NCBI GenBank assembly: GCA_041651455.1
Contig: JBAZJG010000001.1
Location: 146,535 to 210,534, forward strand
DNA from: Candidatus Omnitrophota bacterium
Lineage (GTDB): Bacteria > Omnitrophota > Gorgyraeia > Pluralincolimonadales > Pluralincolimonadaceae
Length of the DNA stretch: 64,000 nucleotides
Direction: 5' to 3'
The first letter of the stretch is position 1. Every line of letters begins with the position of its first letter. The translations under genes and the position numbers were made by a program. Shown here piece by piece: positions 16,152 to 52,641 of the stretch. A model generated the notes under the pieces. That model had not been told where the DNA came from. It did no database searches and was given only the letters and a program-made list of their open reading frames with translations.

Positions 16152-17278
16152 GGAAGATATCGTTACCGGCATATGAGGCCTCGCGCTGCCGCCTGTACGC
16201 GCTGGGCAGGAACGCGATGTATGCCGCGTGCAGGGCCTTCGGCCTGAAGGAGGGCGACGAAATATTGACGCCCGCATTCGATTGCGACGGGTCCCTGCAG
16301 CCGTTCAGGGCGCTCGGGCTGAAACTGAAGTTTTACCGCTCGGACCCGTACACCTTCGAGGCGGATACGGGCGATATGGAGAAAAGGATGGGACCGTCAA
16401 CAAGGATGGTCCACGTAATCAACCATTTCGGGATGCCCCAGCCGTGGGGCAGGATAAAGGGGATCTGCGGGGCCTTAAGGGTCCCTGTCATGGAGGACTG
16501 CGCATATTCGCTGTTCTCAGACGGATTCGGAACGAACGGCGACGCCGCGATATTCTCGCTGAGGAAGAACCTGCCGATGGTAGACGGCGGGATGCTCCGT
16601 ATGAACAACGGAAATTTCGCGCTGGGCCGTCAGGCAGAACGCGCGCCTCTGTTCTACAGGACGGAATCGGCAAATGTCCTGACATTGATCAAATCGGCCA
16701 TGGGATATTATAAGGCGCCCGAAGGGCTCAGGCGTATTCTAAGGAAGGCCAATCCCGCGGTGGAACCTCCTCCGCCTTTGTATTCGGAGAAGGAGAAAGG
16801 GTATCCCGAGTGGCCCCTGCGCGACCATACGGGGGAAGAGTTTAGCTGCGGCTATGAAAGGCCCATCTCCGCGCTGGCGAGGTTCCAGCTGGAAGGCCTG
16901 CCGGAAGGATATTATAAAAATGCCGCGGAGACGAAACGGCGTTATTATTCGGAGCTCGCCGGGAAGTTCGCCGGATTGAACGGGATACGGGTTCTCTGGC
17001 CGGAACTTCCGGAAGGCATAGTCCCTTTTTGCCTTTCCGTATTAATTAACCGGGACAGGGACCGCATTTTCGCGGAATTGAGGAAGAAATATGATGTGAT
17101 GGCCTGGCCGACGCTTTCGCGGGAAGTCATCGACCGGCTTGGCGAATACCCGGAAGTGGAGATCCTCGGCAGGAAGGTCCTGCAGTTCAACCTGTCGGCA
17201 GACAAGGTCATGAGGCGGGATTACCCGCAGTATATAGGCAGGCTCGCGGACGATTTTACCGCGTTAACGGTGAGATAG
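16148..17278 (+). CDS. DegT/DnrJ/EryC1-type PLP-dependent sugar aminotransferase-like protein with a shortened N-terminus
   Basis: GRNAMYAACRAFGLKEGDEILTPAFDCDGSL...LKLKFY matches the DegT GRSAL...GDEVI.P.FTF motif but begins at aa ~18. A possible catalytic Lys is in FSLRKNLP. TTG start (TTGA overlap). Confidence 0.5.
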   Translation: MRKISLPAYEASRCRLYALGRNAMYAACRAFGLKEGDEILTPAFDCDGSLQPFRALGLKLKFYRSDPYTFEADTGDMEKRMGPSTRMVHVINHFGMPQPWGRIKGICGALRVPVMEDCAYSLFSDGFGTNGDAAIFSLRKNLPMVDGGMLRMNNGNFALGRQAERAPLFYRTESANVLTLIKSAMGYYKAPEGLRRILRKANPAVEPPPPLYSEKEKGYPEWPLRDHTGEEFSCGYERPISALARFQLEGLPEGYYKNAAETKRRYYSELAGKFAGLNGIRVLWPELPEGIVPFCLSVLINRDRDRIFAELRKKYDVMAWPTLSREVIDRLGEYPEVEILGRKVLQFNLSADKVMRRDYPQYIGRLADDFTALTVR

Positions 17279-18379
17279 ATGGAATACCGCTGGATCGAGG
17301 ATATAGAGGATTTCAGGAAGATAGCGGGAGAATGGGACATGCTCGCCTCCAGCGGAGACTCGCACCCTTTCCTGCTTTCGGATTTCATAATAACGTGGTG
17401 GAAGTACTTCGGGAAAGGCAAGAAACTCAGGATATTCGTCGTCGAAGAGGGCGGTAAGGTCAAAGGAGGCCTGCCGTTATGCCTGAACAGGGGCGGCGCA
17501 AGGGAGGGTTTCGCGGATTTCCTCCATTACATAGGAGAGGTCGCCGCGAATTACACGGAGCCGCTTTATTCAAACGGGAAGCAGGAGATATTCCCGTTGC
17601 TGGCCCTAGCGCTTTCAGAGAGGAACGACTGGGATGTTTTTTGCCTGACCGATATCAGGGAAGGCAACCGGTTCCTGAAGGAGCTCAAAGGCGCAACGGG
17701 GCAGAAGGGTTGTTCGATATTCCTCATAAGCGACCATATGAACTACGCGATCGACCTTGGCAAGGGGCTTGAAAGCTACCTCTCGTCCTTATCTCCTAAA
17801 CTAAAGAGGGACCTGAGGTCGAAGCGAAAGCATCTCACGCAGAAATGCGGGGCGATAACGCTCGAAAGGGCCTCGGGCGAAAAGGAAGTAGGGGCAAGCG
17901 CCGCCCTTTACAAGGAGTTCTCAAGGGAAGCGTTCGCAGCGAGGAACAGGAAGAGCAATTTCGAGAACGACAAATACGCGGATTTCTTCGGGGAATTCCT
18001 CGTCCTGATGGAAAAGGCCGGCCGTCTGGACGCGCACCTGCTCAAGGCGGGAGATACCGTGCTTGCTATTAGCTTCGCGTACAGGTTCGGCAGGGGTTTC
18101 AACTGGGTCCTTACGGCGTTCGATTACAAATATAAATATTACAGGCCGGGATATATCCTCATAGAGGAATTATTGAAGGAGATATGCGACAGGGGCGAGA
18201 CATATTACAACTGGTACGGGCACGGGCGCTTTTACAAGGACCAGCTCTGCAACCTGCTTGAGCCCCTGTATAAGGTAATGATGGTAAGGAAGACGTTAAA
18301 AGGTTCGTCGTACCTGCTGTCGCAAAAAGCCAAGAAGGCGGTCAAGTACCTGAAAGGGCTGGTCGACGGTGCAAAATAA
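17279..18379 (+). CDS. GNAT-fold acyltransferase of the CelD/BcsL (FemAB-like, Acetyltransf_6) type
   Basis: 366 aa. The C-terminal core LTAFDYKYKYYRPGYILIEELLKEICDRGETYYNWYGHG is typical of this family. Confidence 0.5.
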   Translation: MEYRWIEDIEDFRKIAGEWDMLASSGDSHPFLLSDFIITWWKYFGKGKKLRIFVVEEGGKVKGGLPLCLNRGGAREGFADFLHYIGEVAANYTEPLYSNGKQEIFPLLALALSERNDWDVFCLTDIREGNRFLKELKGATGQKGCSIFLISDHMNYAIDLGKGLESYLSSLSPKLKRDLRSKRKHLTQKCGAITLERASGEKEVGASAALYKEFSREAFAARNRKSNFENDKYADFFGEFLVLMEKAGRLDAHLLKAGDTVLAISFAYRFGRGFNWVLTAFDYKYKYYRPGYILIEELLKEICDRGETYYNWYGHGRFYKDQLCNLLEPLYKVMMVRKTLKGSSYLLSQKAKKAVKYLKGLVDGAK

Positions 18380-19340
18380 CCCGGTACGCCGCCGCCTGCG
18401 CAGGGATTACCATGCGGTGAGGCGCGTCGTCACGCATGTAAAAAATGCGCTTACGGACCCTTCGCCGAAACTCATAGTCCTTACATACCACAGGATATTG
18501 CCTGACTCAGGGCACAATCCGCTTAATACGGCCGTGTCTGAGCGCACCTTCATAAGGCATGTCGAGGGCGTTGCAAGGAAAGCGGGCATAATATCGCTGT
18601 CGGACGCGGCCGAACAGTGCAGGACCGGCCGCATCAAGCGGGCCCTGCAGGCGGTAATAAGCTTTGACGACGGGTATTCGGATAATTACGGGACGGCCTT
18701 CCCGTTATTGAAACGCAAGGGCTTGCCGGCGGTATTCTCCGTTTCGACCGGTTATATCGGCGCAGGCCGCCCGCTGTGGGATTCCGACGTGATAATGAGG
18801 ATAATCCGCGGTAATATAGGCCGCATAGACGCCGGAGGTTTCACTGCCGCAAGAGGCATGCCGGAATCGGCGTGTTCTTTCGCGTTCAGGGTCTTTGATG
18901 AGCTGAAGTCGAAGGACTTCACGGTGATAGGGAAAGTCCTGGAATTCCTGGTGGAGAAGGACCCGGGATACAGCAACGAAGAAGGGCACTGCATGACGTG
19001 GGAGCAGGTAAAGGAACTGTCCGATGCCGGGATGGAGATAGGGTCGCACGCAGTGACCCACAGGTCCCTCGCGAGGATACCTTTCGCTGAAGCGGAGTTC
19101 GAGGTGAACGCAAGCAAGGCCGAGATAGAGAAGAGGACCGGAAGGCGTTGCGCCCATTTCGCGTTCCCATTCGGGAGCGCAAGGGATTATAACGCAGGAC
19201 TGATAGAATGCGTAAAGAAGGCCGGGTACGGGACCTGCCTGCTCAATATACACGGCTACAACAGGATGACCGATGGCGTTTTCGCGCTGAAGAGGGCTAT
19301 AATGGAAGAAGATACGGACGTGAGGTTCATACTTGGCTGA
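18369..19340 (+). CDS. Polysaccharide deacetylase (NodB/CE4 domain)
   Basis: ISFDDGYSDNY...PAVFSV NodB motifs 1-2. HAVTHRSL is the His motif. GTG start. Confidence 0.65.
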   Translation: MQNNPVRRRLRRDYHAVRRVVTHVKNALTDPSPKLIVLTYHRILPDSGHNPLNTAVSERTFIRHVEGVARKAGIISLSDAAEQCRTGRIKRALQAVISFDDGYSDNYGTAFPLLKRKGLPAVFSVSTGYIGAGRPLWDSDVIMRIIRGNIGRIDAGGFTAARGMPESACSFAFRVFDELKSKDFTVIGKVLEFLVEKDPGYSNEEGHCMTWEQVKELSDAGMEIGSHAVTHRSLARIPFAEAEFEVNASKAEIEKRTGRRCAHFAFPFGSARDYNAGLIECVKKAGYGTCLLNIHGYNRMTDGVFALKRAIMEEDTDVRFILG

Positions 19341-20404: not shown

Positions 20405-21343
20405 ATGAATACGGGCCTTTCTATCGTTGTCCCGACGTATAACGAGGAAGATTCCATCGTTAAGCTGCATTCAAGGATAAAGGAAGCCCTCCGAGGCAAG
20501 GTAAAATACGAGATCATATTTGTCGATGACGGTAGTACCGACGGGACATACGGGATCCTGGACAAGCTGAACCGCGAAGACCCGGACGTAAAGGCCGTAA
20601 AGCTCTCGAGGAATTTCGGGCATGAGATAGCGACGTCCGCAGGGCTCAGGTATGCATCGGGAGAGGCCGTAGTCGTGATGGACTCCGACCTGCAGCATCC
20701 TCCCGAGACGATAAATGAACTGCTGGAGAAAATGAAGGAAGGTTATGATATCGTCTTCGCGGTGAGGCGCAACAGGGAAGCCGGGTCCGCGCTTAAAAAA
20801 TTCTGCTCGAAGGCCTTCTACGGCGTATTGGGCAGGCTGTCGGAGGTCAAACTGCCGGATGACGTGACGGATTTCATGATACTTAACAGGAAGGCGGTCG
20901 ACGCGTTCCTTAAGCTCAGGGAAAAGAGCCGATTCTTCAGGGCTATGATCTCATGGATGGGCTTCAGGACGGCATTCGTGCCGTTCGAGGAAGGAAAGAG
21001 GAGCAGCGGCAGCTCGAAATACGGCCTGCGTAAGCTCGCGGGCCTCTCGGTTGACGTAGTGACGGGATATTCGATAAAACCGCTGGCGTTCGTTTCGTGG
21101 GCAGGGGCCATAATTTCGGCGGCAAGCTTCGCGCTGCTGCTTTTCTACTTGGTTAAGACGATATTCTACGGCGCGTCCATGCCGGGTTATGCGTCGATGA
21201 TGATAACTATATTGTTCATAGGCGGCATTCAACTGCTGTCTATCGGGATAATAGGACAGTATATCGGCAGGATATACAAGGAGACGCAGAAGAGGCCGTT
21301 ATACCTCGTCGGCAGCCTTATAGGACTGGAAGAAAAGGAATGA
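20405..21343 (+). CDS. GT2 polyprenyl-phosphate hexose synthase (GtrB/ArnC-like, with C-terminal TM helices)
   Basis: LSIVVPTYNEEDSI...[12 protein letters not shown]...KLSRNFGHEIATSAGL...VMDSDLQHPPE. Two C-terminal hydrophobic helices. Confidence 0.7.
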   Translation: MNTGLSIVVPTYNEEDSIVKLHSRIKEALRGKVKYEIIFVDDGSTDGTYGILDKLNREDPDVKAVKLSRNFGHEIATSAGLRYASGEAVVVMDSDLQHPPETINELLEKMKEGYDIVFAVRRNREAGSALKKFCSKAFYGVLGRLSEVKLPDDVTDFMILNRKAVDAFLKLREKSRFFRAMISWMGFRTAFVPFEEGKRSSGSSKYGLRKLAGLSVDVVTGYSIKPLAFVSWAGAIISAASFALLLFYLVKTIFYGASMPGYASMMITILFIGGIQLLSIGIIGQYIGRIYKETQKRPLYLVGSLIGLEEKE

Positions 21344-23055
21344 CGCGTAAGAAGGCCGCCCTGCTATTGGCCGTCGTGATGATGGCGGCATTCCACATCT
21401 CCGCGAGCATTGCGCAGATGTCCAACAAGTTCGACGACGAACCAGCCGCAGGGCCGTTCGGCGGGATACGCCTGCATTACCTGAATGTCCTTAACTTCGA
21501 TTTCTCGCACGGGGTGTCGGCGCAGGATGGCACGTCGCATATACTGGACAATTTCATCAAGTCGGCGGTCAGCGGAACGCACGGGCTCCTTGATTTTGCG
21601 CACTGGTACGCATACGCGGGCATATACGACATGCTCGGGATACCGGTGAACGAGTTCTGGCTTTTGTTCGCGCAGACCGTGGTGATGTTCTGCGGCCTCA
21701 TGTTGATGGCATACGCGGTATACAGGCTCTACGATGATGCAGTAGCGGCGCTGGTATTCCTGGCGATAACGTCCCAGGCGTATGTGCAGCACTCCATCAG
21801 TTTCTATATAATACCGGTGAATACGTTATATGAAGGCCTCTTGCTTCTCTCGATATATTTTTACGACTGGAAGGAGAAGGGGTTTGCGCGGAAAATCCCG
21901 CTGCTCGTGATGTTATTCATAAACTCGGCCTGCGGCAATGTGATAAAAATGCCGGTATACCTGTATTTCGCATGGGCCGCGGCGTATAAACGGGACAATT
22001 ACGGGCCGCTTGGCTCGGCCAGGGAATACTTCGTAAAGAATCCCGCGAACCTGACGCTTGCGGTCCCGGTCATTGCCGCGGCCGTCGCGCACCTCTATGT
22101 ATACAAGAGGATAGGAGAGAGCAACCTGGGGCTTTTGGGCTGGGTCTCGCAGAAGATAGGCATAGGAGCTCCGCTCGTATCGAAATTCGCAGCGATAGGA
22201 AGTTCGCTGAAGAGCATGTTGCTGTCAGGCATGTGGCAGTGGTGGGCGTTTGCAGCCCTTGCGGCATTTTACGCGATAGCCGTAATGCGGGGGAAGAAAC
22301 AAACACCGCTGCTGTTATTTCCCGTCGTATATTACCTGTATCTCATAAATCTTGAGCCGTATTCGGCGATGCTTCCCTACATGATTATTGCGTCTATAGC
22401 GATAGCGCAGGCCTTCAGGATGGCATCCGATAAAACACGGAATGCGGCCGCGAGGTATGCTTCGACAGCGGCAGTCGCGGTCTTTACGGCATACATACTT
22501 TCGGTTTCGGCATCTGCGAACGTGGCTTCCCTCGTTTCGCCGAGGCAACGGTCACCCAATTACCTGAAGAGCGTCGGTTATTACCTTAGGGAGCATATGA
22601 GCAAGGATGATAAGATCGCAAGCTTGCTCGACCAGAGGGAGAACATCCTGAACGAATATTATTACGGAAAGAACTTCTTCAAGAGCCCGGTATTCGGGAA
22701 ATATATCTATGACATGAGGAACATTTCGGAGCCGCCATCTTCAACGAACCCGGTGGCCGAAGGCGAGGCGGACATGGAATTCCCTTTTTATGTCGTATCT
22801 GCGTCGTGTTATAAAAAGGACGCGGGATATGCCTCATTTGTAGATAGGCTCGCAAAGAAATACTCTCTCAAGAAGGTCGCCGATATCGCCTCGGGCGGCA
22901 CCGTCTACGCGTCGGTGTATTCTTCGAGGCCTCTGCAATACGAGAGGTTAGAGGCCGAGAATGCCAATGGGAAATTTGATAGGAAATACGCAAATTTAAA
23001 GAAACTGTTCTACAACAGGCATGTCGGCGTAGCCTCGACCTGGGGGTTCTATTGA
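21340..23055 (+). CDS. Polytopic membrane protein, GT-C-like glycosyltransferase candidate (GtrC/ArnT-type partner of the upstream GtrB-like gene)
   Basis: KFDDEP first-loop acidic motif then ...AYAGIYDMLGIPVNEFWLLFAQTVVMFCGLMLMAYAVYRLY. More than 10 helices and a C-terminal soluble domain. ATGA overlap. Confidence 0.45.
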   Translation: MTRKKAALLLAVVMMAAFHISASIAQMSNKFDDEPAAGPFGGIRLHYLNVLNFDFSHGVSAQDGTSHILDNFIKSAVSGTHGLLDFAHWYAYAGIYDMLGIPVNEFWLLFAQTVVMFCGLMLMAYAVYRLYDDAVAALVFLAITSQAYVQHSISFYIIPVNTLYEGLLLLSIYFYDWKEKGFARKIPLLVMLFINSACGNVIKMPVYLYFAWAAAYKRDNYGPLGSAREYFVKNPANLTLAVPVIAAAVAHLYVYKRIGESNLGLLGWVSQKIGIGAPLVSKFAAIGSSLKSMLLSGMWQWWAFAALAAFYAIAVMRGKKQTPLLLFPVVYYLYLINLEPYSAMLPYMIIASIAIAQAFRMASDKTRNAAARYASTAAVAVFTAYILSVSASANVASLVSPRQRSPNYLKSVGYYLREHMSKDDKIASLLDQRENILNEYYYGKNFFKSPVFGKYIYDMRNISEPPSSTNPVAEGEADMEFPFYVVSASCYKKDAGYASFVDRLAKKYSLKKVADIASGGTVYASVYSSRPLQYERLEAENANGKFDRKYANLKKLFYNRHVGVASTWGFY

Positions 23056-27213: not shown

Positions 27214-29121
27214 ATGTGCGGGATCTGCGGTATCATAGACATCTCCGGAAGGCCTGTCAACGCAGATACTGTAAAAGCCATGTGCTCGGAGATGAAGCAC
27301 AGGGGCCCTGACGACGAAGGGATATACCTGAACGCGGCTTGCGAACGCAGCTCCGGCAGAGGCCCCTCTGCCGCGCTCGGACACAGGAGGCTGAGCATCA
27401 TTGACCTCTCGTCGTGCGCGAAGCAGCCGATGTCAAACGAGGACGGTTCGGTATGGCTTGTCCTGAACGGCGAGATATATAATTACAACGAACTGAGGCC
27501 CGGGCTTGAGAGCAAGGGCCATAAGTTCAGGTCGCATTCCGATACAGAAACGCTCGTGCACCTGTACGAGGAGTACGGCGGGAAATGCGTCGACAAGCTC
27601 AGGGGGATGTTCGCGTTCGCGATCTGGGATGATAATAAGAAGGAGCTTTTTGCGGCCAGGGACAGGGTCGGGAAGAAGCCGTTCGTATACCAGCATAAGG
27701 ACGGAAGGTTCGTGTTCGCGTCGGAGTTCGCGGCGCTCCTGAAGAGCGGCGAGATATCACGGAAAGTAAGCGATGACGCGATACACTATTACATGAGCCT
27801 CGGTTACGTCCCGGCCCCGGCGTCGGCGCTGGAAGGCGTAAACAAGCTGCCGCCGGCCCATTGCCTTACGCTTTCAAAATCCGGCCTGAAGGTGGAACGT
27901 TACTGGGAACTGGATTATTCCAGGAAGCTGAAGATAAGCGAGGAAGACGCCGCCGCCGAGGTCAAAAGGCTTTCGGAGGAAGCAGTAAAGATAAGGCTGT
28001 TCAGTGACGTACCGCTCGGAGCGTTCCTTAGCGGAGGGGTCGACTCAAGCTGCGTAGTGGCGATGATGAGCAAGCTCTCCCCGGGAAAGGTCAGGACCTT
28101 TACGATAGGCTTCGAGGAGAAGGACTACAGCGAACTCGAATACGCAAGGAAGATATCCGGCATTTTCGGCACCGAACACCGCGAGTTTATCGTGAAGCCG
28201 AACGCGCTCGATATAATAGGCATGCTCGCGGAAAGGTACGGCGAACCGTATGCCGACTCTTCGTGCATACCGACATACTACGTATCGAAGGAGACGCGCG
28301 CATTCGTGACGGTCGCCCTGAACGGAGACGGCGGCGACGAATCCTTCGCCGGATACGAACGTTACCAGGCGATGAGCGCGGCGGAAAAGATCCGCGGCCT
28401 CGGGATGGGCGCGGCGGCCAGGGCTGCCTCGTCTTTATTGCCGGACTCTACGAACCCTAAAGACCTGGCGCGCAGGGCCAGGAGGTTCCTGACTAACGCC
28501 GGCCTGCCCGCGGCCGAAAGGTATTTGAGGTGGGTAGGAATTGCAGGGGAGGTGAAACCGGAGAAACTGTATTCCGGGGACTACCTCGGCCGGATAGATA
28601 AGGCCGGCCCGTTGCGCCTTTTAAAACCGTATATAGACGGCAAGTCGTGCCCGGAGTTCCTCGACAGGCTGCTGAAGGCCGACGTAAATACGTCGCTGCC
28701 GAACGACCTGCTCGTAAAGGTCGATATCGCGGGCATGGCAGCGTCGCTCGAAGGGCGTTCGCCGTTCCTCGACCATAAACTTATGGAATTTGCGGCTTCG
28801 CTTCCCTCGTCCTATAAGATAAAAGGAAACACCAAGAAGTACATACTTAAGAAGGCCTTCTCAGGGGTGATACCCGACGATATATTATCGAGGAGGAAGA
28901 TGGGTTTCGGCGTGCCGGTAAGCGCGTGGTTCAGGGGGGAGCTTAAGGGCATGCTGACGGAGACGCTTCTTTCAAGGGCGTCGCTATCGAGGGGATATTT
29001 CAGGCAGGAGGCGGTAAAAGGGATGGTCGATAACCATACCTCCGGAAGGAAGGATTATTCGTTCCAGTTGTGGGCTATGTTGATGCTCGAGCTGTGGCAT
29101 AAGAGGTTCATCGACGGATGA
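27214..29121 (+). CDS. asnB: Asparagine synthetase B-type glutamine amidotransferase (WbpS-like, in the glycan cluster)
   Basis: MCGICGI N-terminal Ntn-Cys. SGGVDSS PP-loop. Full-length 635 aa. Confidence 0.8.
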   Translation: MCGICGIIDISGRPVNADTVKAMCSEMKHRGPDDEGIYLNAACERSSGRGPSAALGHRRLSIIDLSSCAKQPMSNEDGSVWLVLNGEIYNYNELRPGLESKGHKFRSHSDTETLVHLYEEYGGKCVDKLRGMFAFAIWDDNKKELFAARDRVGKKPFVYQHKDGRFVFASEFAALLKSGEISRKVSDDAIHYYMSLGYVPAPASALEGVNKLPPAHCLTLSKSGLKVERYWELDYSRKLKISEEDAAAEVKRLSEEAVKIRLFSDVPLGAFLSGGVDSSCVVAMMSKLSPGKVRTFTIGFEEKDYSELEYARKISGIFGTEHREFIVKPNALDIIGMLAERYGEPYADSSCIPTYYVSKETRAFVTVALNGDGGDESFAGYERYQAMSAAEKIRGLGMGAAARAASSLLPDSTNPKDLARRARRFLTNAGLPAAERYLRWVGIAGEVKPEKLYSGDYLGRIDKAGPLRLLKPYIDGKSCPEFLDRLLKADVNTSLPNDLLVKVDIAGMAASLEGRSPFLDHKLMEFAASLPSSYKIKGNTKKYILKKAFSGVIPDDILSRRKMGFGVPVSAWFRGELKGMLTETLLSRASLSRGYFRQEAVKGMVDNHTSGRKDYSFQLWAMLMLELWHKRFIDG

Positions 29122-33089: not shown

Positions 33090-34055
33090 GTGCATTATCT
33101 CATAACGGGCGGCGCCGGCTTTATAGGATCCCACCTGACCGATAAGCTGATAAAGGAAGGGCACAGAGTCACGGTGCTCGACGACCTGTCTACGGGAAAG
33201 GTCGATAACGTAAGGCATCTCGAAGGGAACCCCGATTTCAAGCTTGTAGTTGGGACTATTCTGGATGAGTTCCTCGTAGATAAGCTGGCGGAGCGCTGCG
33301 ACGCGATATTCCACCTCGCGGCGGCGGTGGGAGTGGAGCTTATAGTCAACCATCCCCTGGAATCGCTTACCACTAACATAAAAGGGAGCGAGATAGTCCT
33401 CGGGATGGCGTGCCGATACCATAAAAAAGTGCTGATAACCTCCACGTCGGAGATATACGGGAAGAATACCCAGGGCCCGCTGAAAGAGGACCAGGACAGG
33501 ATTCTCGGATCGCCGTTGAAGTCGAGATGGAGCTATTCCACGGCTAAGGCGGTCGACGAGATGCTCGCCTATACATACTGGAAGACGAAGGATGTCCCGG
33601 CGGTAATAGTCCGCCTTTTTAATACCGTGGGCCCGAGGCAGTCCGGGATGTACGGTATGGTCGTCCCGAGGTTCGTCAGGCAGGCGGTCGAAGGCAAGGA
33701 CATCACCGTATACGGCTCGGGAAAACAGTCAAGATGCTTCCTGCACGTGAAGGATGTCGTCTCCGCACTACCGAAACTGATAGAAGAGCCCAAGGCCTAC
33801 GGCCAGGTATTCAATATAGGCAGCCAGGAAGAAGTCACGATAGAAGGCCTTGCGCGTAAGGTCATCGAGATAACAAAGAGCAGGTCCAGGGTCGTAAATA
33901 TCCCTTATGAAAAAGCGTATGAAGAAGGTTTCGAGGACATGGAGAGAAGGGTGCCCGATACCACGAAGATACGCAACCTGATCGGATTCAACCCCACCGC
34001 AGACCTAAAGACGATAATAGAGGACGTTGTAGGTTATATAAAAGGGAACAAGTAA
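33090..34055 (+). CDS. NAD-dependent epimerase/dehydratase (UDP-glucuronate decarboxylase / UXS-like extended SDR)
   Basis: GTG start 10 nt after an [35 protein letters not shown] motifs. Confidence 0.65.
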   Translation: MHYLITGGAGFIGSHLTDKLIKEGHRVTVLDDLSTGKVDNVRHLEGNPDFKLVVGTILDEFLVDKLAERCDAIFHLAAAVGVELIVNHPLESLTTNIKGSEIVLGMACRYHKKVLITSTSEIYGKNTQGPLKEDQDRILGSPLKSRWSYSTAKAVDEMLAYTYWKTKDVPAVIVRLFNTVGPRQSGMYGMVVPRFVRQAVEGKDITVYGSGKQSRCFLHVKDVVSALPKLIEEPKAYGQVFNIGSQEEVTIEGLARKVIEITKSRSRVVNIPYEKAYEEGFEDMERRVPDTTKIRNLIGFNPTADLKTIIEDVVGYIKGNK

Positions 34056-34058
34056 CCA

Positions 34059-35849
34059 GTGGCTTATGTTTACCTTTTTTTAACCGCTTTTTCAATAGCG
34101 TTCCTTGCGACCCCGGTCGTTAAGGCGGCGGCATGCCGCCTCGGTATCGTCGCGAAGCCGAAAGAAGACAGGTGGCATAAGAAAGTGATACCGCTGATGG
34201 GCGGCATCGCGATATTCGCGGCGTTCATGGCGACCTACCTTGTATTCATGCGCGGCGGGAAGATCAATATGGGGCTCGTAGTGGGCGGCACATCGATATT
34301 CCTGCTTGGTGTTGTAGACGATATCAGGGGCCTGAGCCCCCAGTCGAAGCTTGTCGGGCAGATCATATGCGCCTCGCTGGCAGTGATGTTCGGCGTCTCG
34401 ATAAAGGTAATACCGTTCGCCGCGATATCGGTCCCGCTTACGATCCTCTGGATGGTCGGGATCACGAATTCATTCAACCTTCTTGATAACATGGACGGGC
34501 TGTCGGCGGGCGTTACGGCGATAGCGTCGTTGACGATCTTCGCATGCTCGCTCGCGCTGCACAATTACGAGATAGCGATGGTATCGCTGATAATGGCCGG
34601 CGCCTCGCTCGGTTTCCTGCCGCATAATTTCTATCCCGCGAGGATCTTTATGGGCGACTGCGGCGCGATGTTCCTCGGTTTTACGCTGTCGGCGCTTACG
34701 ATAATGGGCACATGGAAAGAGGTCTCGCACCTTTTCCTCGTCCTGCTCGTCCCTGTGCTCGCGCTGGCCGTCCCGATATTCGATACGCTCTTCGTCGCTA
34801 TAACGCGCACGATAGACGGCAGGTCTGTCGCAAAAGGCGGCAAGGACCATACGTCGCACAGGATGGTCTTCCTCGGATGGCAGGAGAGGAAGGCGGTCAT
34901 GGTGCTTTACTCGATATCGATCCTGTTCGGCGCCGCGGCATATATATCGCTCCACGTGAAGATATACGTAAGCGCCGTCATTATGTCGCTGCTCGTGCTG
35001 GTCATCTCGGTGTTCGCGATATTCCTGAACCATTCCACTATGTCAAGGCGCTCATCGAGGCAGCCCGGCGATAAAGAAGTCTCGTTTTACAAGAACGAAT
35101 CCGAGCTGATAGAAGCCCTGGTAAAATACAAGAGGGTCATATTCGAGGTAATATGCGATTTCATCCTGATATGCCTCGCGTACATGTCGAGCTATATAAT
35201 GAGGTACGAGGGGATAATAGACCATTATAATTTCGGGCTTATAGCTAAATCGCTGCCGATAATTATCGTGATAAAGCTGCTGGCCTTTTCCGTAAGCGGC
35301 GTATACGGGAACATCTGGCGGTATATAGGGCTCAACGAGTTGATCAATATCGTGAAGGGCATAACATTGGGCTCTATAGCGTCGGTCGTGGTCATGGTCA
35401 TCGCATTCAGGTTCGAAGGATTTTCGAGGATGATATTCGTACTCGACGCGATGGTCCTGCTGATACTGATGTCGGCCGTAAGGATAGCTTTCAGGATATT
35501 CAGGGAACAGCTGTTCGTCTCATTCGAAGGCCAGGGCAGGAGGGTCCTCATATTCGGCGCCGGGGACGCGGGTGACGCGTTCCTGCGCGAGATAAGGAAG
35601 AACAGGTCGCTGAACTACCGCCCGATAGGTTTTATCGACGACGACCTCTCGAAACAGGGACGAAGGATACAGGCCGTCCCGGTGCTCGGCGTGAGGTCGG
35701 ATATACCGAGGCTCGTGGAGGAGAAGAATATAGACGAGATAATTCTTGCGATCCCGTCCGCGGACAATAAGACCAAGGATGATATTGAAGCCATATGCAG
35801 GGAGAGCGGCGCGGAGTACCACCAGATAAGCGGGATATACCTTAAGTGA
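34059..35849 (+). CDS. Fusion: WecA/MraY-family polyprenyl-phosphate N-acetylhexosamine-1-phosphate transferase (PNPT) with the WbpM/PglF-type N-terminal 4-TM plus Rossmann-like (CoA-binding-like) domain
   Basis: NSFNLLDNMDGLSAG is the PNPT signature. The C-terminal 260 aa have TM helices then RVLIFGAGDAGDAFLREIRKNRSLNYRPIGFIDDDLSKQGRRIQAVPVLG...IILAIPSA. GTG start. Confidence 0.65.
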   Translation: MAYVYLFLTAFSIAFLATPVVKAAACRLGIVAKPKEDRWHKKVIPLMGGIAIFAAFMATYLVFMRGGKINMGLVVGGTSIFLLGVVDDIRGLSPQSKLVGQIICASLAVMFGVSIKVIPFAAISVPLTILWMVGITNSFNLLDNMDGLSAGVTAIASLTIFACSLALHNYEIAMVSLIMAGASLGFLPHNFYPARIFMGDCGAMFLGFTLSALTIMGTWKEVSHLFLVLLVPVLALAVPIFDTLFVAITRTIDGRSVAKGGKDHTSHRMVFLGWQERKAVMVLYSISILFGAAAYISLHVKIYVSAVIMSLLVLVISVFAIFLNHSTMSRRSSRQPGDKEVSFYKNESELIEALVKYKRVIFEVICDFILICLAYMSSYIMRYEGIIDHYNFGLIAKSLPIIIVIKLLAFSVSGVYGNIWRYIGLNELINIVKGITLGSIASVVVMVIAFRFEGFSRMIFVLDAMVLLILMSAVRIAFRIFREQLFVSFEGQGRRVLIFGAGDAGDAFLREIRKNRSLNYRPIGFIDDDLSKQGRRIQAVPVLGVRSDIPRLVEEKNIDEIILAIPSADNKTKDDIEAICRESGAEYHQISGIYLK

Positions 35850-37324
35850 GCGCCGGGAAAAGCAGGGTATGTTCCGGATGCGACAAATTCATAGAGTACC
35901 TGCTCTACACGCTCTTCTTCTTCATCTCATCGTCAAAGAGCGTCCTCGAAGTGTTCGCTACGATAGCTATCCTCATATGGTTATTCAAGAAATCCTATGA
36001 ACTAAGGGAGCGGATAAGGGCAAAGGCGGAATCGTTCAGCATGACGCGTGCAAGCGCAAGATCTTCCGTCATCTTCGCGCTTATAGGCGTCCTGACGATG
36101 GTAATGGTCTATGTCGCTATCGTGGTCACGATGGGGATAGCTACAAAACATACCGCGCCCGGCGTTAACCTTCTGGCGCCCGCACATTTCATTCCTATCG
36201 TGCTGATCGCGGCGGTCCTGCTGGCGATGTTCTATATAGTCATATCCTCGGTCATGCACTCCTTGCGACTGGATGCCGGCATAAAGGCGTCGTCCGTCTG
36301 CTACCTGCTCGTGGCTATAATCACGTCGGCATTTACCACCGGAAATCTTGCCATAAGCGCAGGGGCCCTTATGTTCAAGACGATGGAATATTTCCTGCTG
36401 TTTATCGTGATAGCGGATGTCATAAATACGAGGGAGAAGCTAGCGCGTTCCGTACTGGCCTTCATATTCCCGGCATCGATAGTGGGACTGGACGGCCTCT
36501 ATCAGTATTATTCCGGCCACGACCTGTTCAGGCATTTCCCGCTCTTCGAGAAGATAAAGGTCACCGCTACTTTCAAGTTCTCGAACAGCGCGGGAACCTT
36601 CTTCGCAACGGTACTGCCGCTTCCGCTTTCGCTATTCATGATGAACACATTCCGAGGCAGTAAGAGGGCGCTGCTTGCGGTTTCGATCGCCGTCATATTC
36701 GCGTGCCTGATGCTGACACAGGCAAGGGCCGCCTGGCTCGGGTTCGCCTCCGCCTTCATATTCCTCTGCGTTATTTCCGGCAAGAAGAGGTTCTATGCGC
36801 TGCTCGCATCGTTACTGGTAGTAGTAGCGCTGCTTGCCGTCGCCGGGCCGCAATCGCTGAAGGACCAGATAGGTTCGCTTGTGAATATAGGAAGGGACCA
36901 GTCGAGCAAGGACAGGCTTCTGATCTGGGAGACGGGCTGGAGGATGTTCATGGACAGGCCTGTATTCGGGCACGGGCTGGGAACGTTCATGAGCGTCTTT
37001 GAAAAATACAGGCCGGCAGGATACAGCGAGATCGTTTATGCGCATAACTGCCTGCTGCAGGTGGCGGCGGAAACGGGTATTGCCGGCGTCCTCGCGTCCT
37101 TATGGATAGCGGCAGCAATGTTCATATCGGGATTGAAGAATTATTTCAGGGAAAAGGACGTTTCTACAAGGGCAGCGTATATAGGGTTCATCGGCGGCCT
37201 GCTCGCAACGATGGTCAACAGCCTTTTTGACACAAACCTGTATTCACTTCCGCTGGCAGTCCTGTTCTGGTCGGTCGCTGGGTTGTCGGTGGCTAAGACT
37301 GAATACGGACAGCCGGAAAATTGA
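35846..37324 (+). CDS. O-antigen ligase / Wzy_C-domain polytopic membrane protein (WaaL-like)
   Basis: AAWLGFASAFIFL...RLLIWETGWRMFMDRPVFGHGLGTF is the characteristic Wzy_C periplasmic loop. GTG start (GTGA overlap). Confidence 0.6.
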   Translation: MSAGKSRVCSGCDKFIEYLLYTLFFFISSSKSVLEVFATIAILIWLFKKSYELRERIRAKAESFSMTRASARSSVIFALIGVLTMVMVYVAIVVTMGIATKHTAPGVNLLAPAHFIPIVLIAAVLLAMFYIVISSVMHSLRLDAGIKASSVCYLLVAIITSAFTTGNLAISAGALMFKTMEYFLLFIVIADVINTREKLARSVLAFIFPASIVGLDGLYQYYSGHDLFRHFPLFEKIKVTATFKFSNSAGTFFATVLPLPLSLFMMNTFRGSKRALLAVSIAVIFACLMLTQARAAWLGFASAFIFLCVISGKKRFYALLASLLVVVALLAVAGPQSLKDQIGSLVNIGRDQSSKDRLLIWETGWRMFMDRPVFGHGLGTFMSVFEKYRPAGYSEIVYAHNCLLQVAAETGIAGVLASLWIAAAMFISGLKNYFREKDVSTRAAYIGFIGGLLATMVNSLFDTNLYSLPLAVLFWSVAGLSVAKTEYGQPEN

Positions 37325-42721: not shown

Positions 42722-43295
42722 GGTCATATTCCTCGACAGGGACGGCGTCATAAATGTCGACCCCGAGTTCATAAACGAGTATATGTATGTGACGAAGTGG
42801 GAGGAGTTCAGGTTCATCCCGCGCGCGAAGCAGGCGATGAAGAAGCTCGCCGACAACGGTTATTCCGTATACATAATCTCGAACCAGGCGGGCATAGGCA
42901 AGGGGTATTTTACCTTGAACGCGCTGTCGGATATCACGAGGAAGATGCGCTCCGAGATAAGGAAAGCAGGCGGCAGGATAGCGGGTGCCTACTATTGCCC
43001 GCACAGAAAAGAGCAGCGGTGCGCGTGCAGGAAACCGAAAACGGGCCTTTTCAGAAAGGCGTTGAAACGCGGAAAGATCGATTTCGGAGGCACGTATTTC
43101 ATCGGGGACAATATCAGGGATGTGGTAGCCGGGAAGGCCATCGGCTGCGCCACGATACTCGTCCTCTCGGGCAAGACGAAGAGATCTGACGTGAAACGAA
43201 ACTCGGCAAAGTGGGAAGCGAAGCCGGATTTCATCAAACGCGACTTGTATGACGCGGTGAACCTGGTCCTTAGGAGGGACGAGAAAAGAACATGA
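42702..43295 (+). CDS. gmhB: D-glycero-D-manno-heptose 1,7-bisphosphate phosphatase (HAD family, GmhB-type)
   Basis: VIFLDRDGVIN is HAD motif I. CPHRKEQRCACRKPKTG is the GmhB Zn-binding Cys cluster. GDNIRD is motif IV. Confidence 0.7.
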   Translation: MARKQHKVIFLDRDGVINVDPEFINEYMYVTKWEEFRFIPRAKQAMKKLADNGYSVYIISNQAGIGKGYFTLNALSDITRKMRSEIRKAGGRIAGAYYCPHRKEQRCACRKPKTGLFRKALKRGKIDFGGTYFIGDNIRDVVAGKAIGCATILVLSGKTKRSDVKRNSAKWEAKPDFIKRDLYDAVNLVLRRDEKRT

Positions 43296-44419
43296 AGATA
43301 TTCATAGTCCATGCGCCGGCCGGAGCCGGGCACAAGAGCGCCGCATTCGCAATAAAGGACGCATTCGATAAGGCCAAGACGGGGCATGACGTTAGGGTCA
43401 TCGATTCGCTCGAGTATATGAACTGGTTCTTCAGGAAGACGTATATATGGGGGTATAACTTCATGGTTTCGAGGGCCCCGTTCCTCTGGAGCTTCTCGTT
43501 CTACCTGACGGATTTCAAGCCGATACGGCCGCTCATAAGGTCGATAAGGCGAATGACAAATTTCCTTAACGGCTATGCGTTCTATAAGTTCATACGAAAG
43601 GAGAACCCCGATTGCATAGTGTCGACGCATTTCCTGTCGACGGAGATAATATCGAACCTTAAACTGTCGAAGATGTACGGCGGTGAGCTGATAACCGTCA
43701 TTACCGATTACGGCGTGCATGATTTCTGGATATCCGCGCAGGTGGACATATACGTCGTAGCGTCGGAATATACGAAGAAAGAGCTTGTATCTAAGGGCAT
43801 ACCCGCCGAGAGGATCAGGGTCCTCGGCATCCCGGTGCAGGAGAAGTTCACCCGCAGGTGGGAGAGGGGCGAAGCCGCGAGCAACCTGGGACTCAAGGAG
43901 GGATTGTTCACGGTCCTTATAATAGGAGGCGGCCTCGGGGTTGGACCGATTCCGCAGATGGTCGAGACGATATCGAAGACGCAGGAGCCGTTCCAGATCA
44001 TGGTGGTCTGCGGCAAGAACGAGGCGCTGCGCAGGCATATAGAAGGGATAGCCAAGGGGTCGAAGACGGCGATGAAGATCTACGGTTTCGCCGATAACGT
44101 GAACGAGCTTATGGACGCATCCGATGTCATGATATCGAAACCCGGAGGGCTCAGCATCTCCGAGGCGATGGTAAAGGGGGTGCCGGTCATAGTGAACACT
44201 TTCATTCCCGGCCAGGAAGAGAATAACCTGATGTTCCTTGAAAAGAACGGCGTAGGTATCGGGACGAAGACGATCGCCGAGACCCTTGATAAGCTGGAGT
44301 ACCTGTTCAGGCACAAGGAAGTGCTTGAAACGATGCGGTCTAAAGCGAAACAGCTCGGTAAGCCCTCATCGGCCGGCGATATAGCCCTTCTCGTCCTGCA
44401 GACTGTGGAGAAGAGATGA
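43292..44419 (+). CDS. GT28 glycolipid synthase (MGDG-synthase N-domain plus Glyco_tran_28_C; diacylglycerol glycosyltransferase-like)
   Basis: APAGAGHKSAAFAI N-terminus. ISKPGGLSISEAMVKGVPVI C-terminal region. AGGAGG RBS. Confidence 0.6.
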   Translation: MKIFIVHAPAGAGHKSAAFAIKDAFDKAKTGHDVRVIDSLEYMNWFFRKTYIWGYNFMVSRAPFLWSFSFYLTDFKPIRPLIRSIRRMTNFLNGYAFYKFIRKENPDCIVSTHFLSTEIISNLKLSKMYGGELITVITDYGVHDFWISAQVDIYVVASEYTKKELVSKGIPAERIRVLGIPVQEKFTRRWERGEAASNLGLKEGLFTVLIIGGGLGVGPIPQMVETISKTQEPFQIMVVCGKNEALRRHIEGIAKGSKTAMKIYGFADNVNELMDASDVMISKPGGLSISEAMVKGVPVIVNTFIPGQEENNLMFLEKNGVGIGTKTIAETLDKLEYLFRHKEVLETMRSKAKQLGKPSSAGDIALLVLQTVEKR

Positions 44420-49288: not shown

Positions 49289-50608
49289 ATGATCAACAAT
49301 AAAGTCGCGCCAAGCGAATTAATTCGTCGGGATTTCCAGCACTTAAAAGAGACCGAGGAATTAAATACAACGAGTGAGATAGCGGACCTGTTGTTCGTCC
49401 AATCTCTCGAAGGAAGGGCCCATAACGGTGCGGGCGCCTTCCAGAAGAGCTTTTATGTCAATACTACGATAGACGACATCGTGAAGGCGCTCAGGCTTGA
49501 CCCGGACAAAGTGAAGTCAAGGCGCCAGATGCTCATTGACGATATCGCCCGGTTCGTTGACGATACCATAAAGGGCAAGCCGAGGCTCAGGCTCGTAAAT
49601 GAGAAGGGAGAGCCGTTCATAGGCGTGCCGGACCTGCTCGAGATAGAGGTCAACGCCGCGGACGTGCTTAAAGGGATATATATCGGAGGGCTTAGGGACG
49701 ATCCGGGGCCCCGGGCGGCCGCGGAAGAGAAGTACGGGATCACGATCGGATACGGGAAATGCTACCCGGTGAACATCGACGTCATGGAAAAGATGGCGCT
49801 TGACGGCGAGGTGCTCGCTCACCGCGAGAATGCCGGCTCTATAGAGGCGTTCAAGAGGGCCGGGCTCATAATCCAGGAGGAAGACCTGGGCAAGACAGCT
49901 CCCGAGAAGATCAGGTATCTTTATATACGCCATAAGATAGGTCCCGGCCAGTCCGACGACGGCGCACTTGTCGCGAGCGGGATGATCTACAACAAGGACG
50001 TAGCGCTCGGGATATTCCTCGCGGATGCCATAGATACGCTGGAAAAATATGTGCACGCGTATAAGGACCAGGACGATGAGCTGGGTTACCGGATACAGAA
50101 GGATTTCAAGGGGCTCAACGTCACGATGGACGAGGTGCTCGAGATAACGTACCTGGCGGCTGTGCCCGAAGAGCTGGACGCGCAGACGCCGGACAGCTCA
50201 TTGAGGTATTTCCTTACGATAGACAGGCAGGCCGGGCAATGCGCGCTGCAGAGCCATTTTAATTTCATCGACAAGAAGCCGTATTTCCCGATGTTCATAA
50301 GTTTCAACAGGGTCCTGTCGACGGAATTCTACGCTTATATCAGGAACAAGGTCATGGCGCTGAGGAACCTCAAGGCCGTCGTGACCTCGGATACGGTGCT
50401 GAAAGGGCTCGAGGCCCCCGTAGACGATTTCCTGAAGCGATCCGCCGTGATAGTGAAGTCCGGTGTATCGCTGAAGGATGCCGTCGCGAAGATGCGCTCG
50501 AGCGGCGCGGAATTTCTCGTGATTCAGGATGACTGCAATACGGTGCAGGGGGTCATATCGATGAACGACCTTCTTAAGCTGATGATGGAAAACGGGAGAA
50601 AGGACTGA
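49289..50608 (+). CDS. Hypothetical protein with a C-terminal CBS domain
   Basis: 439 aa. The last ~60 aa (VKSGVSLKDAVAKMRSSGAEFLVIQDDCNTVQGVISMNDLLKLM) are CBS-like. The N-terminal 370 aa have no recognisable motif. Confidence 0.5.
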   Translation: MINNKVAPSELIRRDFQHLKETEELNTTSEIADLLFVQSLEGRAHNGAGAFQKSFYVNTTIDDIVKALRLDPDKVKSRRQMLIDDIARFVDDTIKGKPRLRLVNEKGEPFIGVPDLLEIEVNAADVLKGIYIGGLRDDPGPRAAAEEKYGITIGYGKCYPVNIDVMEKMALDGEVLAHRENAGSIEAFKRAGLIIQEEDLGKTAPEKIRYLYIRHKIGPGQSDDGALVASGMIYNKDVALGIFLADAIDTLEKYVHAYKDQDDELGYRIQKDFKGLNVTMDEVLEITYLAAVPEELDAQTPDSSLRYFLTIDRQAGQCALQSHFNFIDKKPYFPMFISFNRVLSTEFYAYIRNKVMALRNLKAVVTSDTVLKGLEAPVDDFLKRSAVIVKSGVSLKDAVAKMRSSGAEFLVIQDDCNTVQGVISMNDLLKLMMENGRKD

Positions 50609-51642
50609 TGCCCGAGTTCAGGAAAGACCCGATAATCGGAAGGTGGGTCATAGTCGCGACCGAGAGGGCACGCAGGCCGAGCGATTTCGTTCCGCATTCG
50701 GTGTCGGAGGAGAAATATACCGAGCCGGAATGCCCGTTCTGCGAAGGCAAGGAAGACAAAACACCGCCTCCCGAGATCTATGCGATAAGGGACCCCGGCA
50801 CAAAACCGGGTTCGCCCGGCTGGAAGGTCAGGGTAGTCCCGTCGGTCTCGCCGGTCCTGAAGATAGAAGGCAAGATAGAGCGCCGCGGCAGGGGCATATA
50901 CGACGTCATCAACGGCATAGGCGCGCACGAGATAATAGTCGAAACGCCGCAGCACATATATAACATGGCAGACCTTCCCGAAGAGCAGATCACCTGCGCG
51001 ATAACGGCTTATATAGAACGCATGACGGACCTCGGTAGGGACCCCCGTTTCAAGTACGCTCTCCTGTTCAAAAATTACGGGTCCGCAGCGGGTTCCGGAA
51101 AGGTAAGGCACGCGCACTCTCAGCTTATAGCGATGCCGGTCAACCCGATAAGGCTGAAAGACGAGCTTGTCGGCTCGAGGCAGTATTTCGAATATAAGGA
51201 ACGCTGCATATTCTGCGATATCATAAAGCAGGAGACGGATACCGGCAAGAGGATCGTGGCCGATATAGACGGATTCCTCGCGTTTGCGCCGTTCGCGTCG
51301 AGGTTCCCGTTCGAGATGTGGGTGCTCCCAAAGAAGCACAGCTCTGATTTCTGCAACCTCACGAAGGACAAAAGGGCGGACCTTGCAAGGATACTGAAGG
51401 TCGTCCTCACCAAATTGAAGAAGGCGCTGGTGGACCCACCGTACAATATAATACTGCATACGGCGCCGTTCAGGGTGCCGAAAGCCGGGTACTGGAGGAC
51501 GATAGAAGAGGATTTCCACTGGCATATCGAGATAATGCCGAGGCTTACGAGGGTAGCAGGTTTCGAATGGGGCAGCGGTTTCTATATCAACCCGACGCCT
51601 CCCGAGGACGCTGCGAAATACCTTAACGAGATGGAAATATAA
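50608..51642 (+). CDS. galT: GalT-type HIT-family hexose-1-phosphate nucleotidyltransferase / NDP-sugar phosphorylase, copy 1
   Basis: CPFCEG zinc knuckle. HAHSQL is the HxHxQ active site. ~340 aa class I GalT length. Confidence 0.75.
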   Translation: MPEFRKDPIIGRWVIVATERARRPSDFVPHSVSEEKYTEPECPFCEGKEDKTPPPEIYAIRDPGTKPGSPGWKVRVVPSVSPVLKIEGKIERRGRGIYDVINGIGAHEIIVETPQHIYNMADLPEEQITCAITAYIERMTDLGRDPRFKYALLFKNYGSAAGSGKVRHAHSQLIAMPVNPIRLKDELVGSRQYFEYKERCIFCDIIKQETDTGKRIVADIDGFLAFAPFASRFPFEMWVLPKKHSSDFCNLTKDKRADLARILKVVLTKLKKALVDPPYNIILHTAPFRVPKAGYWRTIEEDFHWHIEIMPRLTRVAGFEWGSGFYINPTPPEDAAKYLNEMEI

Positions 51643-52641
51643 ATGGCCGAGCTGAGAAGGGATCCTATAACGGGAAGATGGGTCATCATCGAGATAGACA
51701 GGGCGAAGAACCCGTCCGATTACGAGGTCGAGCCGCATAAGAAGAGGGAAGGCATATGCCCGTTCTGCCCCGGCAACGAGCGCATGACGCCTCCGGAGAT
51801 ATTCGCGCACCGCGAGGGCGCAGCGAAGCCGAACGAGCCGGGCTGGCAGACGCGCGTAATACCGAACAAGTTCCCTGCGTTGAGGGTAGAAGGCGACCTC
51901 GACAGGATCGGGATCGGCATGTACGATATGATGAACGGCATCGGCGCCCATGAGGTCATAATAGAGAATCCCGACCACAACAAAGAGCTTTGCGACCTGA
52001 TGGACCACGAGGTCGAACAGGTCATATGGGCGTACCGCAACAGGAGCCTCGACCTCATTGGAGACAAGCGTTTCAAATACATTTTGATATTCAAGAATTA
52101 CGGTGTATCGGCCGGCGCGTCGCTCGAGCACCCGCATTCGCAGCTTATCGCGCTGCCGATAATCCCGAAGAGGGTCGTGGAGGAGCTGCGCTGGTCGGAA
52201 AGGTATTACGATTACAGGGAGAGATGCGTCTTCTGCGACATGATACACCAGGAGATAGACGAAAGGGAAAGGGTCATTACGGAGAACAAGAGCTTCATCG
52301 CGTTCGCGCCGTTCGTCTCGAGGTTCCCTTTCGAATTCTCGATATTCCCGAAGATACACAGCGCGGAGTTCAGCTATATACAAAAGGAAGAAGTAGTGGA
52401 CCTCGCGAGGATACTGAAGGAGACCCTTTTAAGGATGAAGATCGCGCTGAAGGACCCTTCATATAATTTTATCGTACATACGTCGCCCATAGATTCAAAA
52501 GAACGCGTGGATTACCACTGGCATATCGAGATAATGCCGAGGCTCGGCAGGACGGCCGGCTTCGAATGGGGGACAGGATTTTATTTGAACCCGACGCCGC
52601 CGGAGATAGCGGCCTGGGCTTTAAGGGAAGTGTCACTGTAA
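51643..52641 (+). CDS. galT: GalT-type HIT-family hexose-1-phosphate nucleotidyltransferase / NDP-sugar phosphorylase, copy 2 (tandem paralogue)
   Basis: CPFCPG. HPHSQL. About half the residues are identical to copy 1 by eye. Confidence 0.75.
   Translation: MAELRRDPITGRWVIIEIDRAKNPSDYEVEPHKKREGICPFCPGNERMTPPEIFAHREGAAKPNEPGWQTRVIPNKFPALRVEGDLDRIGIGMYDMMNGIGAHEVIIENPDHNKELCDLMDHEVEQVIWAYRNRSLDLIGDKRFKYILIFKNYGVSAGASLEHPHSQLIALPIIPKRVVEELRWSERYYDYRERCVFCDMIHQEIDERERVITENKSFIAFAPFVSRFPFEFSIFPKIHSAEFSYIQKEEVVDLARILKETLLRMKIALKDPSYNFIVHTSPIDSKERVDYHWHIEIMPRLGRTAGFEWGTGFYLNPTPPEIAAWALREVSL

Follow-up and report, generated by a model that had tools for sequence, protein, structure and literature searches.

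Two classes of enzymes are described as carrying a module of four transmembrane (TM) helices followed by a Rossmann-like domain (CoA_binding_3, PF13727): the large monotopic phosphoglycosyl transferases (Lg-PGTs) and the PglF-like dehydratases. These classes are functionally unrelated, and the occurrence of the module on both has been termed puzzling (Dodge et al. 2024, PMC10942596). In the Lg-PGT WbaP, the homologous domain binds uridine mono-, di- and triphosphate (UMP, UDP and UTP) and forms a dimer interface, and the enzyme is inhibited by UMP with a half-maximal inhibitory concentration (IC50) of 4 µM (PMC10942596). A UMP-based feedback was proposed for the module (Dodge et al. 2024, PMC10942596), and the authors reasoned that such feedback would suit any phosphoglycosyl transferase (PGT) regardless of its sugar (PMC10942596). 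Here, we describe a gene in a 64-kb stretch of contig JBAZJG010000001.1 from a Candidatus Omnitrophota bacterium (the whole stretch of 64,000 nucleotides is referred to as the window) whose product joins this module to a PGT of the polytopic MraY/WecA superfamily. Neither part is new in itself, and the sequences, most of them without a name, are already public; it is the fusion architecture that is new to the searchable literature, in which, among papers accessible without subscription, we found no description of a polytopic PGT with a four-TM-helix/PF13727 module.

Architecture and conservation of the fusion protein

The open reading frame (ORF) at 34059..35849 on the + strand begins with a GTG codon and encodes 596 amino acids. 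Its product is identical to NCBI MFA5164106.1, a 'hypothetical protein' from a Candidatus Omnitrophota metagenome-assembled genome (MAG) contig of 230,773 bp. The gene is laid out as follows.

34059..35849, + strand: whole gene, a 596-residue two-domain protein made of a polytopic PGT and a four-TM-helix/PF13727 module
34059..35054, + strand: PGT domain of the MraY/WecA superfamily, residues 1-332, with 11 predicted TM helices
35055..35096, + strand: linker at the domain junction, residues 333-346, charged, predicted to be disordered and presumably cytoplasmic
35097..35519, + strand: four-TM-helix bundle, residues 347-487 (helices 347-382, 389-413, 425-450 and 457-487)
35538..35846, + strand: Rossmann-like domain, residues 494-596, with five strands and the PF13727 core

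Two Pfam families matched the protein far above their gathering scores: Glycos_transf_4 (PF00953), covering residues 72-217 with 123.4 bits (E = 1.1e-35; gathering score, 27), and CoA_binding_3, covering residues 420-576 with 64.1 bits (E = 2.1e-17; cut-off, 25). No Pfam match to the short-chain dehydrogenase/reductase (SDR) domain Polysacc_synt_2 (PF02719) or to Bac_transf (PF02397) was found in the protein, whose chain stops at residue 596. A first-pass annotation, made by a model from the letters of the window, had read residues 1-330 as a WecA/MraY-type transferase and residues ~340-596 as the N-terminal module of WbpM/PglF-type dehydratases, with no SDR catalytic domain behind it. The Glycos_transf_4 match and the intact catalytic motifs bear out the first half of this reading, the CoA_binding_3 match and the four TM helices the second, and the end of the chain at residue 596, with the next gene overlapping the stop codon, the third; the fusion of a polytopic PGT to the module is thus supported. 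The domain boundaries and the motifs quoted in that annotation were also correct (NSFNLLDNMDGLSAG at residues 137-151, RVLIFGAGDAGDAF at 494-507, IGFIDDD at 523-529 and PVLG at 541-544). Around the junction, the structure prediction is of low confidence (predicted local distance difference test score, pLDDT, <50 at residues 325-352), and the loop 330-357 contains six lysines or arginines.

The transferase half has the MraY-like fold of 10-11 TM helices. Its catalytic, Mg2+- and UDP-binding motifs, namely the DD of the first cytoplasmic loop, NxxNxxDxxDG, (F)MGD and the histidines of the last cytoplasmic loop, align with those of MraY, and residues D87, D88, N137, N140, D143, D146, G147, D200, H264 and H267 are invariant across a 45-sequence alignment. 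Since all catalytic motifs are intact, this half is most likely catalytically competent. The NCBIfam WecA model (TIGR02380) aligned with residues 5-326 at 106.9 bits, below its equivalog cut-off of 326.05, and the MraY equivalog cut-off was not reached either; we therefore use 'WecA-like' at the superfamily level only.

The module half combines a Rossmann-like fold with the shared signature of a GxGxxG loop and an acidic DDD after β-2. In the Rossmann domain, the signature comprises GAGDAG (500-505), RE (510-511), GFIDDD (524-529), K532, G544 and C580, and the conserved residues of the TM bundle are P400, W420, Y422, R457, R475 and R479. Across 110 modules linked to polytopic PGTs, with a mean pairwise identity of ~36%, GAGxxG, RE, GFxDDD, K532, G544, C580 and the TM residues are 85-100% conserved, and the same signature is equally conserved in 20 dehydratase-linked modules, implying the same molecular function in both contexts.

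Which of the two described types the module resembles was addressed by several comparisons. The NCBIfam models TIGR03025, TIGR03023 and TIGR03022, which describe Lg-PGTs, matched residues 366-589 through their positions 2-220 (E = 6e-25 to 5e-16); each was matched in its N-terminal half alone, at 59-88 bits against cut-offs of 295-411. A tblastn search with the module against the PLSDB plasmids, a collection without the two-domain fusion family, matched 506 records (best E = 1e-25), with alignments that start no later than query residue 30, which means that they span the TM bundle. We examined the annotations of the best 40 rows and of 60 more spread down the ranking; every annotated match among them was a 'nucleoside-diphosphate sugar epimerase/dehydratase', a 'polysaccharide biosynthesis protein' or WbpM, and no Lg-PGT was present among these 100 rows. 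Identity to WbpM/PglF/CapD-type modules reached 31-33% by tblastn and 37% by BLASTP (to protein P0201), with homology running from the first of the four TM helices through to the Rossmann-like domain. Among solved structures, the fragment 3NKL comes closest. When the C-terminal 257 residues were compared by phmmer with 1.84 billion representatives clustered at 50% identity, 427 matches had E <= 1e-30; among the best 150 of these, all 19 module-first proteins with a following domain carry Polysacc_synt_2. An origin from an Lg-PGT such as WbaP or WcaJ was rejected: the NCBIfam models match, yet the pairwise matches are dehydratase modules. By pairwise similarity the module belongs with those of the WbpM/PglF/CapD dehydratases and not with that of WbaP, and the label 'WbpM/PglF-type' given at first reading was apt in view of the plasmid matches, the 19 Polysacc_synt_2 proteins and the shared residues.

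One module-bearing relative, P0167 (744 amino acids), consists of the module, a Polysacc_synt_2 dehydratase domain and a C-terminal response-regulator receiver domain (PF00072, 1e-20). Its receiver domain merits mention because the single-domain response regulator EpsW is reported to activate the module-bearing PGT EpsZ (PMC12802240).

The first-pass annotation had left two matters to be checked, whether relatives carry the same fusion and whether a frameshift lies at 35040-35100. On the first, at least 120 clusters across several phyla, with 43-94% identity to the fusion, were recovered from 5.8 billion clustered proteins; a few fragments aside, these are ~590-600 amino acids long and contain both Pfam domains, and the named ones are mostly Candidatus Omnitrophota. 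Likewise, 82 of the best 150 of the 427 module representatives are polytopic PGT-module proteins that end 0-48 residues past the module. Among the GTDB species genomes, full-length fusions were found in Acidobacteriota (Pyrinomonadaceae, Blastocatellia and Terriglobales), Heliomicrobium, Desulfatitalea/Desulfobacterales, Salinivenus, Chloroflexia and Fibrobacterales, and another homologue (P0109, at locus L084) is labelled Thermodesulfobacteriota. The architecture therefore occurs in Omnitrophota, Acidobacteriota, Desulfobacterota, Bacillota and others. On the second, no frameshift was found: the frame is continuous, and 44 homologues of 581-608 amino acids are collinear across the junction, with invariant residues in both halves. 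No other module-bearing gene was found within the window.

Two relatives look different. The fusion appears to be split by a frameshift into 527 and 129 amino acids in a Chloroflexia MAG (L016, 7947-9771), and into overlapping transferase and module ORFs in a Blastocatellia MAG (L041, 1368-3270). These splits could be sequencing errors or pseudogenes.

Proposed role of the fusion protein and alternative readings

We consider it probable, though some way from assured, that the fusion protein is the initiating UDP-sugar:undecaprenyl-phosphate sugar-1-phosphate transferase of the glycan island around it, with the module acting as a nucleotide-binding regulatory or oligomerizing unit. The N-terminal domain would move sugar-1-phosphate from a UDP-sugar to undecaprenyl phosphate and release UMP. 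This step would start a glycan of the lipopolysaccharide (LPS)/O-antigen type, which the products of neighbouring glycosyltransferase (GT) genes of families GT4, GT2 and GT9 would extend and a Wzy_C protein would ligate or polymerize. The eleventh helix of the transferase would leave the chain in the cytoplasm, such that the module could adopt its native orientation, with the four TM helices running from cytoplasm to cytoplasm and the Rossmann-like domain beneath the membrane on the cytoplasmic side. By analogy with WbaP, the module may bind uridine nucleotides and tune or oligomerize the transferase, for example through product feedback by UMP that would protect the undecaprenyl-phosphate pool. 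Polytopic PGTs also release UMP, so the logic of UMP feedback carries over to the fusion.

Several points weigh against this proposal. Nucleotide binding and regulation are extrapolated from WbaP, whose structure matches the module but which is 17-20% identical to it there, and by pairwise similarity the module is nearer the dehydratase type. The domain-swapped β-hairpin that makes the WbaP dimer is absent from the predicted model of the fusion, which ends with β-5 (586-589) and a short helix before the chain end at residue 596; the dimerization mechanism of WbaP thus cannot apply as such. EpsZ likewise has no WbaP-type hairpin, hence the hairpin is not a defining feature of the module. Lastly, with regard to sugar specificity, the protein stays below the WecA equivalog cut-off.

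An alternative that we regard as possible, if on the unlikely side, is that the module is mainly a docking platform, recruiting a soluble nucleotide-sugar-modifying SDR to the initiating transferase. The SDR is present in cis in WbpM/PglF, and transferase, module and SDR share one chain in the triple fusions described below. For the window protein, the partner would be a UXS-like SDR docking in trans and passing on its UDP-sugar product at the membrane, with either the transferase or the GT4 enzyme encoded nearby as recipient. A candidate for this partner lies directly upstream.

33090..34055, + strand: UXS-like extended SDR, 321 amino acids, with its stop codon 3 nt before the start of the fusion

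The best PDB match of this SDR is human UXS1 (1.4e-54, 189 bits over residues 3-317; the next match scores 143 bits), and its motifs STSEIYG, YSTAK and RLFNTVGPR align with STSEVYG, YDEGK and RIFNTFGPR of UXS1; it is a predicted member of the UXS (UDP-glucuronate decarboxylase) family. Of the 23 fusion genes scored, 13 are immediately preceded on their own strand by an orthologue (335-715 bits), a tally in which loci L082 and L083 carry the same protein and L006 had too short an upstream sequence to be scored. By contrast, none of 62 true unfused relatives has it; the sole case among the 63 genes scored as unfused is the frameshifted fusion at L041, which itself fits the docking reading, as does L002, where the SDR sits one gene further upstream. 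The SDR-fusion pair occurs in loci labelled Omnitrophota, Acidobacteriota, Heliomicrobium, Desulfatitalea and Thermodesulfobacteriota, and at L084, in the last of these, it is kept amid an otherwise unrelated neighbourhood. Nevertheless, the unfused controls are phylogenetically distant, mostly TagO-like genes of Bacillota, and the association may reflect an inherited two-gene cassette rather than physical contact. About a third of the fusion loci lack a UXS-like SDR within 8 kb, the upstream gene often being a GT4 gene instead. Moreover, the SDR belongs to another, UXS1-like subfamily, with 22-27% identity to the Polysacc_synt_2 domains tested. For the same reason, set beside the UXS1 match, we rejected the idea that the SDR is a dehydratase domain split off from the module.

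Covalent associations of the components provide a second line of evidence on docking. Three representatives among the closest module relatives (best 150 of 427) are triple fusions of Glycos_transf_4, CoA_binding_3 and Polysacc_synt_2: P0123 (936 amino acids), P0128 (975) and P0131 (955), each 44-46% identical to the window protein and collinear with it over ~570 residues. Two further proteins, P0222 (829 amino acids) and P0253 (890), place a small monotopic PGT (Bac_transf, residues 2-194) before the module and Polysacc_synt_2; judging by this domain order, they resemble PglC and PglF joined covalently and correspond on the monotopic side to the polytopic triple fusions. PGTs of both superfamilies are thus fused to module and dehydratase, a Rosetta-stone-type argument for docking. 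None of the three triple-fusion loci, where the SDR is in cis, has a UXS-like SDR upstream, which also favours docking, although this comparison has n = 3. Docking and the regulatory role that we favour are mutually compatible.

The two readings could be joined in a broader one, which we put forward tentatively and consider rather doubtful: that the four-TM-helix/PF13727 module is a general coupling unit, joining an initiating PGT, whether monotopic or polytopic, to an SDR and making the pair responsive to uridine nucleotides. If true, free-standing WbpM and PglF would carry the module to dock on their cognate PGTs (WbpL and PglC), the triple fusions of a polytopic PGT or Bac_transf with module and SDR would be covalent versions of that complex, and the two-domain family would recruit its co-encoded UXS-like SDR in trans.

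How the two-domain family arose bears on a further alternative. In the complete genome of Ampullimonas aquatilis LMG 28208 (NZ_CP183834.1; L020, 7854-10880), a gene for a 357-residue polytopic PGT is followed in the same frame by a 649-residue WbpM-like gene, with one stop codon between them (...NQYQ*KLTMTQFK..., the asterisk marking the stop). Since tblastn gave one continuous match, this had been a candidate for a cultured example of the fusion, which we rejected in view of the stop codon between the two genes. One point mutation would turn the pair into a triple fusion, and the two-domain family probably arose from a wbpL-wbpM-type gene pair. In a neighbour-joining tree of the modules, the dehydratase modules group together (21/100 bootstraps for the exact split from the rest, 87/100 allowing up to three strays) and the triple fusions are nested among the two-domain proteins. 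Support is weak: the clade of triple fusions was recovered in 51/100 bootstraps and monophyly of the two-domain proteins without the triples in 1/100.

It is conceivable, but improbable, that the module is an evolutionary remnant of a triple fusion that lost its dehydratase, now inert membrane ballast or a folding aid. The inseparability of triple fusions and two-domain proteins in the tree would fit such a history, and the SDR domains of the triple fusions score weakly (139-178 bits, against 247-396 in the ordinary dehydratases tested), consistent with decay. However, the complete module is kept in at least 82 representative clusters at 50% identity, and the retention of the nucleotide-binding signature (GAGxxG, DDD and K532), together with the TM residues, in 110 two-domain sequences as divergent as noted above contradicts an inert relic.

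Vanishingly improbable, and excluded by the observations, is an artificial junction, made by a frameshift, misassembly or truncated contig, between a transferase gene and the 5' portion of an adjacent WbpM-like or WbaP-like gene: one 'full-length' tblastn match, that of Ampullimonas, did prove to be two genes and the relatives at L016 and L041 do look frameshifted, but the ORF is uninterrupted, the database entry for the identical protein comes from a 230-kb contig, length and end point are shared by more than 100 independent clusters of diverse sample and phylum origin, and the start of the next gene overlaps the stop codon of the fusion.

The surrounding glycan-biosynthesis island

A single glycan-biosynthesis island (~43 kb), nearly all on the + strand, occupies positions 1 to ~42,700 of the window; beyond it lie housekeeping genes. 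The island contains ~10 GT2 genes or domains, several GT4/GT1 genes, two GT9 genes, nucleotidyltransferases, RmlD-like and other SDRs, an AsnB-type amidotransferase, a DegT-like protein, a GNAT acetyltransferase, a deacetylase, a B12-radical-SAM enzyme and Wzy_C. Besides the fusion and its upstream SDR, the following features were distinguished.

12973-14706, + strand: nucleotidyltransferase (residues 102-315) joined to GT2 (348-465), 577 amino acids, with an N-terminal extension of ~100 residues that matches no family
14703-19340, + strand: tailoring genes for a B12-binding radical SAM enzyme, a DegT-like protein (partial match), an Acetyltransf_6 protein (FemAB-like GNAT) and a polysaccharide deacetylase
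27214-29121, + strand: AsnB-type glutamine amidotransferase, which recurs near the fusion in Omnitrophota loci L081 (2149-4029) and L083 (3489-5402)
29122-30978, + strand: GT1-type glycosyltransferase (TuaH-like) with a C-terminal DUF218 behind a TM segment, 618 amino acids
31892..33085, + strand: GT4 glycosyltransferase; relatives repeatedly have a GT4 gene upstream of their SDR-fusion pair
35846..37324, + strand: Wzy_C membrane protein (O-antigen ligase/polymerase-like), whose start overlaps the fusion stop by 4 nt (GTGA); the same neighbour is found in L082/L083
37321..39379, + strand: two GT9 heptosyltransferase-like genes (LPS core type) that continue the operon

Within the island, the fusion is part of a tightly coupled operon. 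L082/L083, whose fusion is a relative at 48% identity, show the same succession of SDR, fusion, Wzy_C, GT9 and GT9. The GT1-DUF218 architecture is also seen upstream of the fusion in L083 (3-1871). The AsnB-type amidotransferase and the UXS-like SDR jointly hint at a supply of uronic-acid nucleotide sugars to the glycan of the island, and the run of tailoring genes suggests an unusual sugar modification. Neither a Wzx flippase nor a UDP-glucose dehydrogenase was recognized by Pfam within the window. Six large ORFs had no Pfam match at 1e-5: 47-1237, 6405-8234, 10398-11933 and 21340-23055 on the + strand, and 42992-44314 and 50524-52383 on the - strand. Two of them, 6405-8234 and 10398-11933, have 11 and 9 hydrophobic segments, respectively, and may represent membrane proteins of the polymerase, flippase or GT-C kind.

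Over the whole window (1-64000), GC skew is positive in all 2-kb bins (0.07-0.21) and 49 of 58 ORFs are on the + strand, consistent with one replichore arm with a strong gene-strand bias.

Comparison with described systems

The two-domain family constitutes a third host class for the module, that of the non-homologous polytopic PGTs, in which it is C-terminal rather than N-terminal and is followed by no further catalytic domain. UMP-releasing transferases of two unrelated superfamilies are thus found linked to the module, which argues that the module is autonomous and tied to the initiation step rather than to one chemistry. The two-domain proteins offer a natural minimal construct, a transferase plus the module, for probing what the module does, while the triple fusions and the UXS-like neighbour predict complexes between PGTs and dehydratases in model organisms, namely WbpL-WbpM and PglC-PglF. 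For a protein widespread in Omnitrophota and usually labelled 'hypothetical protein', the analysis also supplies a functional annotation.

With the polytopic PGTs WecA, WbpL, TagO and MraY (PF00953), the fusion protein has in common the fold, the core of 10-11 TM helices and the DD, NxxNxxDxxDG, FMGD and His-rich-loop motifs; unlike them, it has ~260 extra residues that form four TM helices and a Rossmann domain. The last 250 residues are homologous to the N-terminal module of WbpM, PglF and CapD (four TM helices, PF13727 and Polysacc_synt_2), but the fusion has no Polysacc_synt_2 domain, and its module is C-terminal and joined to a transferase instead of a dehydratase. The Lg-PGTs WbaP, WcaJ, CpsE and EpsZ (four TM helices, PF13727 and Bac_transf) likewise combine an initiating UDP-sugar:undecaprenyl-phosphate PGT with the same module. 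In the fusion, however, the catalytic domain is of the unrelated polytopic superfamily and precedes the module instead of following it, and the module has lower pairwise similarity to Lg-PGT modules than to those of the dehydratase type. The wbpL-wbpM-type gene pair of Ampullimonas has the same two components in the same order, which in the window protein are fused and without the dehydratase, and the rare triple fusions P0123, P0128 and P0131 are intermediate in architecture between such a pair and the two-domain fusion.

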